Made by a program: the position numbers and the translations under genes | In this document: positions 33,828 to 40,002 of the stretch, piece by piece | Layout: each line of letters starts with the position of its first letter | Position numbering within the stretch: position 1 is the first letter of the stretch | Origin: Tubiluchus corallicola | Taxonomy: Eukaryota; Animalia; Priapulida | DNA: 64,000 bases | Reading direction: 5' to 3' | Assembly (NCBI GenBank): GCA_030141605.1 | Contig: JAQGDQ010000107.1 | Location: 186,001-250,000 of the forward strand | The notes under the pieces: generated by a model | What the model was told of the DNA's origin: nothing | What the model saw: the letters and a program-made list of their open reading frames with translations, nothing else | Databases searched by the model: none

Positions 33828-33888
33828 ATGCAACTATGCTTGGCGATAACAGCTTTGGTTACAACATGGATGACTCTTTTCATAACAG
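33828..33888 (+). CDS. Cys-rich type-I membrane protein, exon 1 (signal peptide)
   Basis: MQLCLAITALVTTWMTLFIT(G), donor AG|gtaagc in phase 1; joins to give a ...TGNA|VC cleavage-like site. Confidence 0.7.
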
Positions 33889-35279
33889 GTAAGCGTTAAA
33901 CTGTAAAAAGTCTGTTATAATTTCATAAAGTCCTAACTGAATATTCAGTACTGCACTTAATTAAGAAGTAATGAGCAGGGCGAATTATTTTATAGGCTAA
34001 TACAGGCTGCAACCTTTCAAGCTTTGCTACCATTTTAACATTAGTAAAAAAGTCTGTTGTTTCACTGCGGTTATGTTGAAATGTGTACTAATTTGGTTTG
34101 CAATAAATAGTAAAATACTGGCATTTCTTAAAGAATATTTTTATTAACAAACAAAAGAATGCTAATCTAATTTATTTAAAGAATTGCAATAAGCTCACTT
34201 TAATCTATGTAAGTGTCTCTGCATTATATCACGAGTAAACAATGTTCAAGACCGGGTGTGGGACGATTTAGAGGGTGGCTCCATCTGATAGAGGCCCATA
34301 ATTTCATTAGCTTAGGCGCGCGGAAGGTCATAATCCGGTCCTGGGCGATGAGTTTTTAGCACATAATGCAAGTTTGCCGAGAAAAAGATGATAAAAATGG
34401 CCCTTGTAAATGGGTGTACCTCTATGGATGCTGCCACGTAAACATTAGTCAAGGCCTACGTTTAGGGACTCCTGTGTCTGGTCAAGAATAAGTGACGCTG
34501 ATTGTCATAAACTTGTAATGCTGCTAATGAAGTAGGCATTGTTTGTATATTGACTAGAATGAGACACGACCGTTAGTTAGTACGATGAAGCAGGTATTTC
34601 AGTGCAAAGAAGCTGAGTGCGCTCCTACTGTGAAGATAAGCAGACCGCCACGAAAATGATTAGTCTAATTTGCCAGAAGCTGTTTCTTTCCATGAGAAAG
34701 GATGTTTGCCATAAACAAATTTACACAAAGTAGCTAAAACACCTCTGTTGGTTTAAGAAAAGTGAGGTTAAAAAATACGTACTCACTTTATTTAGAATGA
34801 CTATATTTGACAGTGAGCAGATTCCATGTTTCACTTAACGTTTTTGCAAGGACAGTGAAGTAAGTTTTAGTTGCTACAGGGATTGGGAGCAAAAGACAGT
34901 AAAAAGAAAAAAGGAACACTGGGAGAACAGAAGACAGTGAGAGGGGGAAGAGAAAGAAGAGAGACAGTACGAGGGGGATAGAGAGAAAGATACAAAAAGA
35001 GAGGATGAAGCGATGCAAGAGAAAGAGCGGGAGATAAAGAGAGAGAGAGAGAGAGAGAGAGAGAGAGAGAGAGAGAGAGACCGAGGAAGAGAGTGAAAGA
35101 GAGAGAGAGAGGGGAGACCAGAACTTACCAATTTCTAACCTTTAATGCAGCATGATAAATTTATGGTCTAGAACTTCTGGTGAATTCTGCAATTCAACAA
35201 GTTCTTTTACTCCATTTAGTAAGCTTAAACTATGTATCTAACTTACTGCAGTTTCTTCTTAGAAAACTAGCAGGATGCC

Positions 35280-35530
35280 CACCAATTTGTGCTGCATTAC
35301 TGAAAAGTCTGGATTGTTGCAACGGGATCGGAATCTAGCTCATTTTCAAGGATATTCTTCCAACTGAAGCTGTGAATTGTTTATTATTACCCGAATGTTA
35401 CTTCAACTATTCCACGTGCTAGGTCAAAGAACATGCGGTACTATTTTTCAAGTCTTTAGTATGACTCGGCCGTGGAATTGAACCCACCACTTCTCGCATC
35501 AGAAGCAAGGACGGCACCTTCGAGCTATTC
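35280..35530 (-). mobile_element. tRNA-derived SINE
   Basis: GTCTTTAGTATGACTCGGCCGTGGAATTGAACCCACC...GAGCTAT is a reverse B-box/A-box head plus body. Confidence 0.55.
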
Positions 35531-37119
35531 CTGTGGTATGCCGTAACCCAAGCACATATCGTGACCATTCAGCTGCTGTGCGTGCTGAAAATGTCACCTG
35601 ATCACATACCTGCACTAAAGCTGTCCGTTGTCCGAGTTACGGCAACCGACTGATGGTTGTAAATTCGCTTTATGGGTATCCCGAGTGTCCTAATCATTCA
35701 CTTCTTAACACTTTAACAAATGATCACTGGAACGCCTGTTACTATGGTGGTCATTAGTGATGTCCAAGCCAGTTAGCGCCCCTTCTGTGCGTTCTTTTAA
35801 CTTAATATAGGATCCTAATTCAAAAAGCAGCCTTCGATGTAAAGTATAGCACGTGTTTTAAGCAGGGTTGTTTAGCGGCATTTTTTCAATCCCACCAAAG
35901 CCATATTCTTCGCAAAAATTCTCTGACGCAGATTGCAAAGTAACAAAAAAAGATGATCAATAATTTTGGTTTGCTGAAACTGGTTTAAAGCGAGATATGA
36001 TCCAAAAACATGGGCACTTTTACCGCTTCCTAGTATTCGGGTCACTTATCTGCTAAAGTTGGAGAACGTTGGAACTGATTTTAGAACCACTTTACACCCT
36101 GCTAGAATACCGTCAGACATGGCGGGGCCAGAACGCTGTTTATTACCAAGGATCATTTAAAATTTTATATTTTTGGCTGGCTTGTATAAATATATATAAT
36201 CGTTGAAGATAAAACATTGAACCGACAAAGCGTCTTAATTATATGTGAATGCGTATGCAACTTCTCGACTTCAGAGCAGAATAGAAGTTGAAACTCTCGT
36301 CAGCAGTTTTTCCGCAACAGGCACTCATCCATTTAACAACTAAGCCCCGAGTTGTTTAACTTTGCATGCAACGGTGACTACTCAGCCCATTCACAAAAAC
36401 AGCATAGAGATTGTTATTCAGAAATAGTGAGAATTCCAAATATATAATAGGTTAATATATATATAAACAGTTGAGTTTTTGCATTTGATCCTTTGTGCAG
36501 TTTGACAAAACAAGACATAGAAGCTGTTTCAGTTTATCTGAATGTGACCTGACTTTGTGTTACATAACACAAAAGACTTGACTCAGCATTGCATGACATA
36601 ACCTAACCTAATATAATTATAACCTATATAATATATATATAGCCTTGTCAATACAGGTAAAAAGTACATATGTCAGATCATAGGTCAAAATGATGCAGAG
36701 TTTGAAACATCGCCCTGTTTTCCTATTTGGTACTTTTTCCTTTAACTATTTTGGTACAATTCTTCTCATAATATTTGCTATATGTACACAGTAAAATTTC
36801 ACTGTTGAAAAAATATGAGAGTAATAAAGCCCTGACAGTGTTTAAATACCTACAACAACCATTATAAATTTTTCAGTAATATATATATATATATATATAT
36901 ATATATGATATTTAATCCATCCACTTTCTAAGAAATAGAAATGAGGTTTCATTGCCTATAATAGTTACATCAGTAGGTAGTGCATAGCTATAGCTTTTCC
37001 TTAAAATCTCCATTCGTGTATCTGAGATTCGGAATGTCTCTTTACCATCTACTCTTAATGTGTTCATAAAGGTCATCAGTTACCTGCCCCGTAGTAATTA
37101 CCAAATTACTCATTTTCAG

Positions 37120-37284
37120 GAAACGCTGTTTGCACCCGGGACGATTTCTGCAGTCTATTTTGTGCGCGAGTCTGCAAGGTGAAGTTGAACATCGAGTCGA
37201 ATCTGTTTCCAAAATGCCTGGCCGGAAGTTGCGGTTGCTATGCTTCCTGTGAGAATGATTCAAATGTCTGTACGGAACTGCTGT
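37120..37284 (+). CDS. Cys-rich type-I membrane protein, exon 2 (Cys-rich ectodomain)
   Basis: ttttcag|GA ... T|gtaagt, symmetric phase 1-1; NAVCTRDDFCSLFCARVCKVKLNIESNLFPKCLAGSCGCYASCENDSNVCTELL. Confidence 0.82.
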
Positions 37285-38243: not shown

Positions 38244-38356
38244 ATAAATCTTCGACAACGAGCCTGCAGTCTACGATTTTGCTACTCTTTACGATGGCGT
38301 TTGTAGCCGTTCTAGTCTACAGCTTTTGTTTCTATGTCAGACGACGATATGGACAG
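38244..38356 (+). CDS. Cys-rich type-I membrane protein, exon 4 (TM helix)
   Basis: ttatag|AT ... CAG|gtaatt; KSSTTSLQSTILLLFTMAFVAVLVYSFCFYVRRRYGQ, hydrophobic helix followed by an RRR stop-transfer. Confidence 0.85.
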
Positions 38357-38583
38357 GTAATTATTAATTAGTTAAATAAGCCTAAGTTAGATAGGTGTTA
38401 GTGAGCGATTATACTCAATTATAAAAATGCTAACGCTTAAGAGATAGTGGAATATGCAAGCAGCGGATATATGTTTTTCTTTATATAGAAATGCAGCCCT
38501 AACAGCCCGTTAACTACACCGCTGTTTTATCTACAAAATTCATTTATTGTTCAGCCTACTTCCTGTAACAAATGATTTTTAGA

Positions 38584-39125
38584 CTATTATTATTATTATT
38601 ATTATTATTATTATTATTATTATTATTATTATTATTATTATTATTATTATTATTATTATTATTATTATTATTATTATTATTATTATTGTTATTATCATCA
38701 TTATCATTATCATCATCATCATCATGATTATTATTGTTGTTGTTGTTCTTGTTGTTCTTGTTGTTATTACTGCTACACCAGTAGTAGTAGTAGTAGTTGT
38801 TATTGTTGTTGTTGTTGTTCTTGTTATTATTACTACTACACCAGTAGTAGTAGTAGTAGTAGTAGTAGTAGTAGTAGTAGTAGTAGTAGTAGTAGTAGTA
38901 GTAGTAGTAGTAGTAGTAGTTGTTGTTGTTGTTGTTGTTGTTGTTGTTGTAGCAGTAGGAGTAGCAGCAGCAGCAACAGCAGTAGCAGCAGCAGCAACAG
39001 CAGCAGCAGCAGTAGCAGCAGCAGCAACAGCAGTAGCAGCAGTAGCAGCAGTAGCAGTAGCAGTAGCAGCAGCAGCAGCAGCAGCAACAGTAGTAGTAGC
39101 AGCAGCAGCAGTAGCAATAGTAGTA
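38584..39125. repeat. Compound trinucleotide microsatellite (TTA/TCA/GTT/GTA/GCA), intronic
   Basis: Read directly from the sequence. Confidence 0.95.
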
Positions 39126-39357
39126 TTGTTTGTTTGTATCTATCTCTATACCAACTTCAGTTTACAAGTTAACTTGGAACAAACCCTAAATTGAGCCCAG
39201 GAGGTGCCAAGACTGAGGGGACTGATGTAAGACATCATTTATAAGCACCAGGGAATGTCAAACTTGCCTGTTCCACTTATTGTTCACTGTGTATACCTAT
39301 CCATACCCAGATAACCTGTTTTTATACTTTTTTGCTATATATACAATTTTTTTGCAG

Positions 39358-40002
39358 TACCTTGAACAAGTTTCTCCAGTTGCCCATACATCAGCAACGC
39401 ATGAGGAGGGTCAAATGGCGCAGGACCTTCCGCCGTCTTACAGTCAAGCATTAATCCATAGTCGTCCAGTTACATCCGTCCTTGGTCGATCCATCAGCAT
39501 TATCAATCCAAGTCATTCTGTCATTGCTCAACGTCGCGGCCTTTTCACTCGGGAGGAATCCACAATGTCCACCGGAAGTGGAGTGCTCCCACCATATCAG
39601 GAAGCTATCAAACTAAATCCGGCATCCTTAACTCGGTACGTATCAAGGTCGTCGCCAACAGACAACCGCAGAGGAGCTAGGAACAATGAAACGCGTGTTA
39701 ATCTAGCCACACCGAGTGATACAAGTGATATAAACCGTGTAGTATTAGAAGTTAGTGATGGTGCTAGTCAGAATACAATGCGGACGACACGGAGTTCAGT
39801 TGACACTCCAACTGTTACAAGCTGTAGAAACAATTTACAGCATGGCACCACATTTCCATTTCGTCAGCAGCTACGGGATGCTCACGCGTCCTCGTGTCCA
39901 GTAATAAGTTCTGCTGTTCGCCAGGCAGAGGACTTTAGAGACACAGATTCAGCTTCAAATGTTACTTTCACTGTACCTCACTGTGACAGTCAAAAGTTTT
40001 AG
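39358..40002 (+). CDS. Cys-rich type-I membrane protein, exon 5 (cytoplasmic tail with PY motifs)
   Basis: tttgcag|TAC, phase 0; 214 aa including DLPPSYSQA and VLPPYQEA; Ser/Thr/Arg-rich. Confidence 0.85.
   Translation, partial: YLEQVSPVAHTSATHEEGQMAQDLPPSYSQALIHSRPVTSVLGRSISIINPSHSVIAQRRGLFTREESTMSTGSGVLPPYQEAIKLNPASLTRYVSRSSPTDNRRGARNNETRVNLATPSDTSDINRVVLEVSDGASQNTMRTTRSSVDTPTVTSCRNNLQHGTTFPFRQQLRDAHASSCPVISSAVRQAEDFRDTDSASNVTFTVPHCDSQKF

Follow-up and report, generated by a model that had tools for sequence, protein, structure and literature searches.

The subject of this study is a gene at positions 33828-40002 (forward strand) of a 64,000-nucleotide stretch of the genome of the priapulid Tubiluchus corallicola (contig JAQGDQ010000107.1, positions 186,001 to 250,000), below called the window. 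The gene encodes a protein with a predicted signal peptide, a small ectodomain with ten cysteines (the head), a Pro/Thr stalk, one transmembrane (TM) helix and a cytoplasmic tail with the PY motifs PPSY and LPPY. This layout had been proposed in an initial annotation of the window and all of its parts were present, the signal peptide being called from Kyte-Doolittle hydropathy only. The annotation had further read the head as a scorpion-toxin-like K+-channel domain with a link to ubiquitination; the architecture, the PY adaptor part, the likeness in layout to known adaptors and the compatible cysteine spacing were borne out, and the three arguments for a K+-channel toxin were not.

Gene model and a single relative

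The gene covers ~6.2 kb of genomic DNA in five exons (Table 1). Translation of the spliced frame gave GT..AG borders throughout, intron phases of 1, 1, 1 and 0, and an open frame of 1,077 nucleotides that encodes 358 amino acids, as annotated. The five-exon gene is real, and a related protein aligns across all of its exons. Hydrophobic stretches of the product are found at residues ~1-21 and ~118-136 (Kyte-Doolittle), and the stalk of ~40 residues carries N-glycosylation sequons.

The related protein, P0041, is an unnamed Logan protein of 358 amino acids encoded on a contig of 1,387 nucleotides. It was the sole match to the 55-residue head domain among 1.84 billion representatives (phmmer; E 2.6e-22, 82% identity), and 302 of the 364 columns in the full alignment are identical, with all ten cysteines and both PY motifs conserved. 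Three exon junctions are seamless in this alignment; close to junction 3 there are small indels. Since the contig is too short for the 6.2-kb genomic span, P0041 is most likely the product of a spliced mRNA in a related animal. No further relatives were found among the 1,795 candidates of a full-length search (P0041 only; proteins up to 627 amino acids), among shorter proteins (0/9) or among pattern matches on metagenome contigs (0/189). PDB sequences gave no match with either the single head domain or a two-sequence profile, and no Pfam family matched the head or P0041 at E up to 10, a search in which the HMMER filters drop weak matches. A paralogue array of the gene was not detected in the 64-kb window by tblastn.

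Sequencing runs were neutral on splicing: three of them (X1, X2 and X4, presumed RNA) covered repeats only, and no splice joint was seen in any of the four runs compared over 33600-38560 or of the three compared over 37000-38100. In run X3, exon 2 lies inside one unspliced contig with a depth of 4.5 and six differences from the window; among the five that are listed one is exonic and silent (37172), and none falls in the codon for Lys52. The codon of the tenth head cysteine is interrupted by intron 2. Read-through into this intron still encodes the cysteine, which we discarded as evidence for a secreted short form, since it is automatic with a GT donor after T.

Table 1. Coordinates of the gene's parts and of other features in the window, counted from its first letter.
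Feature	Position	Strand	Remarks
Exon 1	33828..33888	+	Predicted signal peptide, residues 1-20; phase-1 intron after it; 16/20 identical to P0041
Exon 2	37120..37284	+	Phase 1-1 module, ten-Cys ectodomain, residues 21-76; 46/56 identical to P0041, 10/10 Cys kept
Lys52 codon	37212-37214	+	Within exon 2
Tyr61 codon	37239-37241	+	Within exon 2
N-glycosylation sequon Asn66	exon 2	+	Inside the head
Exon 3	37820..37912	+	Pro/Thr stalk, N-glycosylation sequons Asn79 and Asn97; 30/31 identical to P0041
Exon 4	38244..38356	+	Stalk end, TM helix, basic residues after it; hydropathy peak 2.56; 30/37 identical to P0041
TM helix	38276-38332	+	Single, residues ~118-136; Cys near inner end
Exon 5	39358..40002	+	214-residue cytoplasmic tail, predicted disordered, and stop codon
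PY motif 1, PPSYSQAL	39430..39453	+	Residues 169-176; extended form; identical in P0041
PY motif 2, LPPYQEAI	39586..39609	+	Residues 221-228; extended form; identical in P0041
66-bp tandem array	39973..40631	+	9.9 copies; first unit contains the gene's final codons and its stop, remainder in likely 3' untranslated region
Ly6/three-finger gene	44197-44143, 42951-42749, 41962-41732 (41732-44197)	-	162 residues, three exons, tail to tail with the studied gene
Rhodopsin-family G protein-coupled receptor exons	22362-23123 and 28088-28858	+	Tandem pair; 7tm_1 E 4e-29 and 1.4e-27
Wnt-family exon	~63620-63730	+	Pfam wnt E 1.3e-07; at window end
Reverse transcriptase piece, long interspersed nuclear element (LINE) type	24952-25473	-	RVT_1 E 3.9e-09
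LINE-type reverse transcriptase piece	44859-46268	+	RVT_1 E 4.4e-21

A PY-motif tail of the Commissureless type

Each PY motif continues as x-x-Ala-hydrophobic. When the tail was shuffled 100,000 times, two motifs of the simple form [LP]PxY occurred in 35 shuffles and two in the extended form in none. A similar extension is found in the Commissureless motif GLPSYDEAL and the PRRG4 motif GLPSYEQAV, and both of these proteins use their PY motifs to bind Nedd4 (PMC5578492). Residues 145-245, the PY region, are identical to P0041 at 97 of 101 positions and are thereby the best-kept region of the protein. Because the extended Commissureless/PRRG-type motifs sit in this region, a role as an adaptor for the Nedd4 family is likely, which agrees with the adaptor reading of the initial annotation.

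Two groups of known proteins resemble the gene product in layout. Commissureless of Drosophila and PRRG1-4 of vertebrates share the extended L/P-PxY-x-x-A-hydrophobic motif, a single TM helix and, likely, a Nedd4-based control of a partner's surface level (PMC5578492). Their ectodomain is Gla-type or free of cysteines, whereas the head described here has ten cysteines, two Glu in 55 residues and no Gla match in Pfam; the full-length homologue search and Pfam detected no sequence similarity to either. The Shisa-like/STMC6 proteins (CYYR1, WBP1, WBP1L, VOPP1 and TMEM92) likewise combine a signal peptide with a short Cys-rich ectodomain, a single TM helix that has a Cys near its inner end, and several PY motifs (PMC11399591, PMC5578492). 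Within this group CYYR1, the best studied of the proteins so arranged, uses its PPxY motifs to bind WWP1, WWP2 and ITCH and functions at late endosomes (PMC11399591). Their six cysteines follow the pattern C*C*CC*CC (PMC5578492), in contrast to the ten cysteines without CC doublets and the 40-residue glycosylated stalk seen here, and no WBP-1, VOPP1 or Shisa match was obtained in Pfam. The likeness to Shisa-like, WBP1 and VOPP1 proteins that had been annotated was thus upheld as one of layout. When features of the whole protein were compared in the Atlas, an unnamed and mainly cnidarian cluster (0.90) and DUF4719 (0.87) came first, and clusters of BEAN1, TMEM92, TMEM52B, VOPP1 and Comm followed at 0.79-0.83; these are leads only and probably reflect the TM-plus-PY layout.

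Taken together, we favour the reading, at a probability of roughly 0.6, that the protein is a single-pass adaptor in the style of Commissureless, PRRG and CYYR1, in which PY motifs and a small disulfide-rich head serve to sort a surface or lumenal partner to endosomes and lysosomes. It would travel the secretory route and display the compact head on its glycosylated stalk, a surface or lumenal partner would be bound by the head or the TM helix, and the two PY motifs would bring in a ubiquitin ligase of the Nedd4 family, upon which partner or ligase may be ubiquitinated and then sorted to endosomes and lysosomes. Each functional step is modelled on the named families; by the same analogy the tail probably binds WW domains, and down-regulation of cargo is a fairly probable outcome. 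The protein would work like the Comm/PRRG/STMC6 adaptors, but by its ectodomain it is not a member of them, and by the signature discussed below it is not an alpha-KTx toxin.

The fold and possible partners of the head

The head cysteines, at residues 25, 31, 35, 39, 53, 58, 60, 64, 71 and 76, are spaced 5-3-3-13-4-1-3-6-4, exactly the C-x5-C-x3-C-x3-C-x13-C-x4-C-x-C-x3-C-x6-C-x4-C of the annotation. The first eight correspond in order to C2-C6, C8, C9 and C10 of the ten-Cys reference array in PMC5116183, and two cysteines lie beyond it. The array of the cysteine-stabilised alpha-beta (CS-alpha-beta) fold, C2...C3-x3-C4...C6...C8-x-C9, is accordingly present in both proteins (Cys25, 31, 35, 53, 58 and 60, with 39 and 64 as C5 and C10), and the annotated compatibility with this fold was in that respect sound. 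Ten cysteines with the last two outside the array do not occur among the patterns in section 6 of PMC5116183; the supplementary figure of that paper has many more patterns and may include one.

We modelled the head with AlphaFold2 from the single sequence (pLDDT, the model's own confidence score, 52.3) and from two sequences (pLDDT 62.2). Both models place a helix over Cys31-35-39 (29-40 and 30-43) and a strand that includes or directly follows Cys60 (60-65 and 59-61). Within the better model, confidence peaks in the CxxxC(xxxC) helix (pLDDT 75, model residues 11-20). Searches with these low-confidence models gave a best Z of 2.8 for model 1 and 3.0 for model 2 (VIA wide), and Foldseek found no match at E 0.001. 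Several designed strand-helix-strand-strand mini-proteins, whose elements follow one another as in short scorpion toxins, appeared at Z 2.0-2.6, which is noise level. The scorpion toxin 1wmt was rejected as a structural match (Foldseek E 6.9, probability 0.02, TM-score 0.27; below Z 2 on realignment, 0/7). At the level of the domain, all listed Atlas matches were scorpion-toxin clusters at 0.79-0.82 (best 0.82, Toxin_5 clusters), a level that shuffled proteins reach one third of the time and hence a lead only. The Toxin_2, Toxin_5, defensin and macin profiles, and likewise TIL and EB, were without a Pfam match for the head or P0041. The TIL and EB folds are all-beta, unlike our low-confidence models, in which a helix is predicted.

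We give even odds to a CS-alpha-beta fold of the head with disulfides Cys25-53, 31-58, 35-60 and 39-64 and an extra 71-76 pair, and likewise to such a domain serving as ectodomain in a PY adaptor, irrespective of the partner bound. It is tentatively suggested, at somewhat lower odds, that the head arose as a phase 1-1 defensin-like exon shuffled onto a TM-PY tail; the phase 1-1 exon fits such a capture, yet genes for extracellular proteins often have exons of this kind. Eight-Cys CS-alpha-beta peptides (maurotoxin-type alpha-KTx, the mussel peptides MGD-1, myticin and mytilin, and nematode ABF) share with the head the order of cysteines, the predicted CxxxC helix and a mature domain in a single exon after a phase-1 intron (PMC5116183). 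They are free and secreted, in contrast to the membrane tether and signalling tail found here, and they lack the head's two extra cysteines, long C5-C6 loop and near-neutral charge, while the head has no KCxN and no gamma-core Gly at C6.

Several points weigh against an adaptor with a CS-alpha-beta head. The conservation is shallow, with the 358-residue protein and P0041 as the only two sequences. Between the two, substitutions are more frequent in the head than in the PY region (10 differences at 45 non-Cys positions against 4 at 101 in the PY-proximal tail, Fisher p 0.0012), which speaks for the adaptor, but these regions were picked after the alignment had been seen, and the distal tail (residues 246-358, 83/113 identical) is as variable as the head. 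Neither low-confidence model has a strand through Cys53, as the fold requires, and the next strand lies at ~68-74 in both. Atlas scores below 0.9 are common for shuffled proteins, and the adaptor function itself is carried over from the named families.

Only slightly short of an even chance, for the fold alone, is a head formed by an unrelated disulfide mini-domain specific to the lineage, or by a module of the Shisa-like, TIL or EB type that has diverged strongly, with coincidental spacing; the protein would still be a PY adaptor, and in that part the two explanations overlap. The strand positions in the models, at CxC and 68-74 rather than in a canonical hairpin, are in line with it, as is the placing of the last two cysteines outside the array. 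So are the shuffles of the domain, in which the lenient six-Cys CS-alpha-beta pattern came up 9,472 times in 100,000 (9.5%) and CxxxC...CxC in 31%. KTx-like Cys spacing arose in 272 of 100,000 shuffles and the ordered eight-Cys pattern in only 21 of 100,000, which speaks for CS-alpha-beta, although the true significance of the latter is lower because its ranges were set after the sequence had been seen, partly from recall, and for a single framework of many possible. The helix with Cys at i, i+4 and i+8, being the most confident element, and the missing C*C*CC*CC pattern of Shisa-like proteins also count against coincidence. The protein could instead be an immune or microbial-surface receptor, where a shuffled defensin module binds lipids or glycans of microbes while uptake and turnover of the receptor itself are driven by the PY tail. 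The array shared with mollusc defensins, myticins and nematode ABFs (PMC5116183) and the faster change of the head would suit such a receptor, as would a mature domain contained in one exon behind a phase-1 intron, an arrangement known from defensin genes of arthropods and molluscs (PMC6435467); the head is not cationic, however, GxC is missing at the sixth array Cys, and no paralogue array accompanies the gene in the window, and we consider this role unlikely.

A tethered alpha-KTx-like blocker, in which Lys52 and Tyr61 plug the pore of a K+ channel and the PY tail has the channel ubiquitinated, appears very unlikely. The dyad on which it builds, in alpha-KTx blockers a basic and an aromatic residue about 6.6 A apart, was seen in sequence as annotated: Lys52-Cys53 and Cys58-x-Cys60-Tyr61 are present with the dyad residues at the expected sequence offsets, a pattern that arose in 686 of 100,000 domain shuffles. 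As a toxin argument it is not supported: the alpha-KTx signature is K-C-x-N with a hyper-conserved Lys (PMC5004176), and the window protein has K-C-L-A and P0041 R-C-L-A, Lys52 being one of the 10 substituted head positions. The Arg in P0041 weakens the channel idea without killing it, because a general dyad may use Lys or Arg, and peptides without the full signature still block Kv channels weakly (PMC5004176). The extra Cys pair is likewise there, but the eight-Cys array is not toxin-specific, since it is common to mussel defensins, myticins, nematode ABFs and maurotoxin, and in six-Cys members spacing alone cannot separate toxins from antimicrobial peptides (PMC5116183). The phase-1 intron near the end of the signal peptide was also confirmed and then discarded as toxin evidence, because it is generic: such introns are general for secreted animal proteins (PMC1626468), and the neighbouring Ly6 gene has one at the same place.

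The format also differs, as alpha-KTx peptides are free, 30-40 residues long and usually basic (PMC4690127) and the head is a tethered domain of 55 residues. Its net charge is -1 in the window protein and -2 in P0041 (core +2 and +1) against +5 in charybdotoxin, although acidic toxins exist for some channels (PMC4690127). Further points against a blocker are the 13 residues between Cys39 and Cys53, the glycosylation sequon in the head and the segment around Lys52, which has a pLDDT below 50 in both models. In its favour stand precedents in other folds, the endogenous channel modulators MMP-23 (PMC4272770, PMC4690127) and Quiver/SLEEPLESS (PMC4735452), and a Ly6 gene next door, although adjacency to this gene was discarded as evidence. 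Lynx1 and Quiver/SLEEPLESS (three-finger) and the MMP-23 toxin domain (ShK fold) share with this reading the idea that an animal displays a toxin-like fold on its own membrane. These have other folds, a GPI (glycosylphosphatidylinositol) anchor or a protease context and no PY tail, and channel action was shown there. A K+ channel is thus a weak candidate for the partner of the head, and pore-blocking by it is highly improbable. The same low odds apply to the boldest version, in which a CS-alpha-beta head at its own membrane docks a K+ channel through the basic-aromatic dyad and passes it on to a Nedd4 ligase; combining tethered toxin and natural degrader in a single chain, beside a gene that we take to be Quiver-like, the protein would offer a living model of the endogenous molecule from which arthropod channel toxins descend.

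In the papers cited here, CS-alpha-beta domains figure as peptides that are secreted and free. A membrane-tethered form did not appear in literature titles and abstract openings, a coverage with subscription papers mostly outside it, nor in passages of PMC5705965. Should the fold be confirmed, the scaffold would serve as a receptor-like module of a multi-domain animal membrane protein, probably by exon shuffling, and provide a new type of ectodomain for PY-motif adaptors that set the surface levels of receptors and channels. With a K+ channel as partner, endogenous channel control would gain a third fold, next to those of Lynx1, SLEEPLESS and MMP-23; with a fold other than CS-alpha-beta, the protein would be an orphan member of a common layout.

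Repeats and neighbouring genes

Repeats are found both inside and behind the gene. Intron 1 contains a high-copy interspersed repeat at ~34060-34300 (summed contig depth up to ~780 in run X3, with many loose ends), and intron 4 a compound trinucleotide microsatellite of 560 bp (38580-39140) with runs of TAT, CAT, GTT, GTA and GCA. Since the 66-bp array begins inside the end of the gene, C-terminal codons and stop recur along the likely 3' untranslated region. In the array, tblastn detected the last 10 residues of the protein once more at 40234-40263, and a 130-codon open frame at 40226-40618 was without a Pfam match at the cut-off. A short segment is duplicated at 59888-59935 and 60316-60363, ~430 bp apart, visible as twin weak tblastn rows, and Pfam gave no match for the 109-codon frame at 59879-60208.

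The Ly6 gene product has a signal peptide, a ten-Cys LU-type domain and a hydrophobic GPI-type tail, and we take the gene to be Quiver/SLEEPLESS-like. Its last exon gave UPAR_LY6_2 (E 0.0048) and Toxin_TOLIP (E 0.0084) in Pfam, both below the cut-off. The upstream receptor exon of the tandem pair, at 22362-23123, is closest to the neuropeptide SIFamide receptors of arthropods, with 33-47% identity among most matches.

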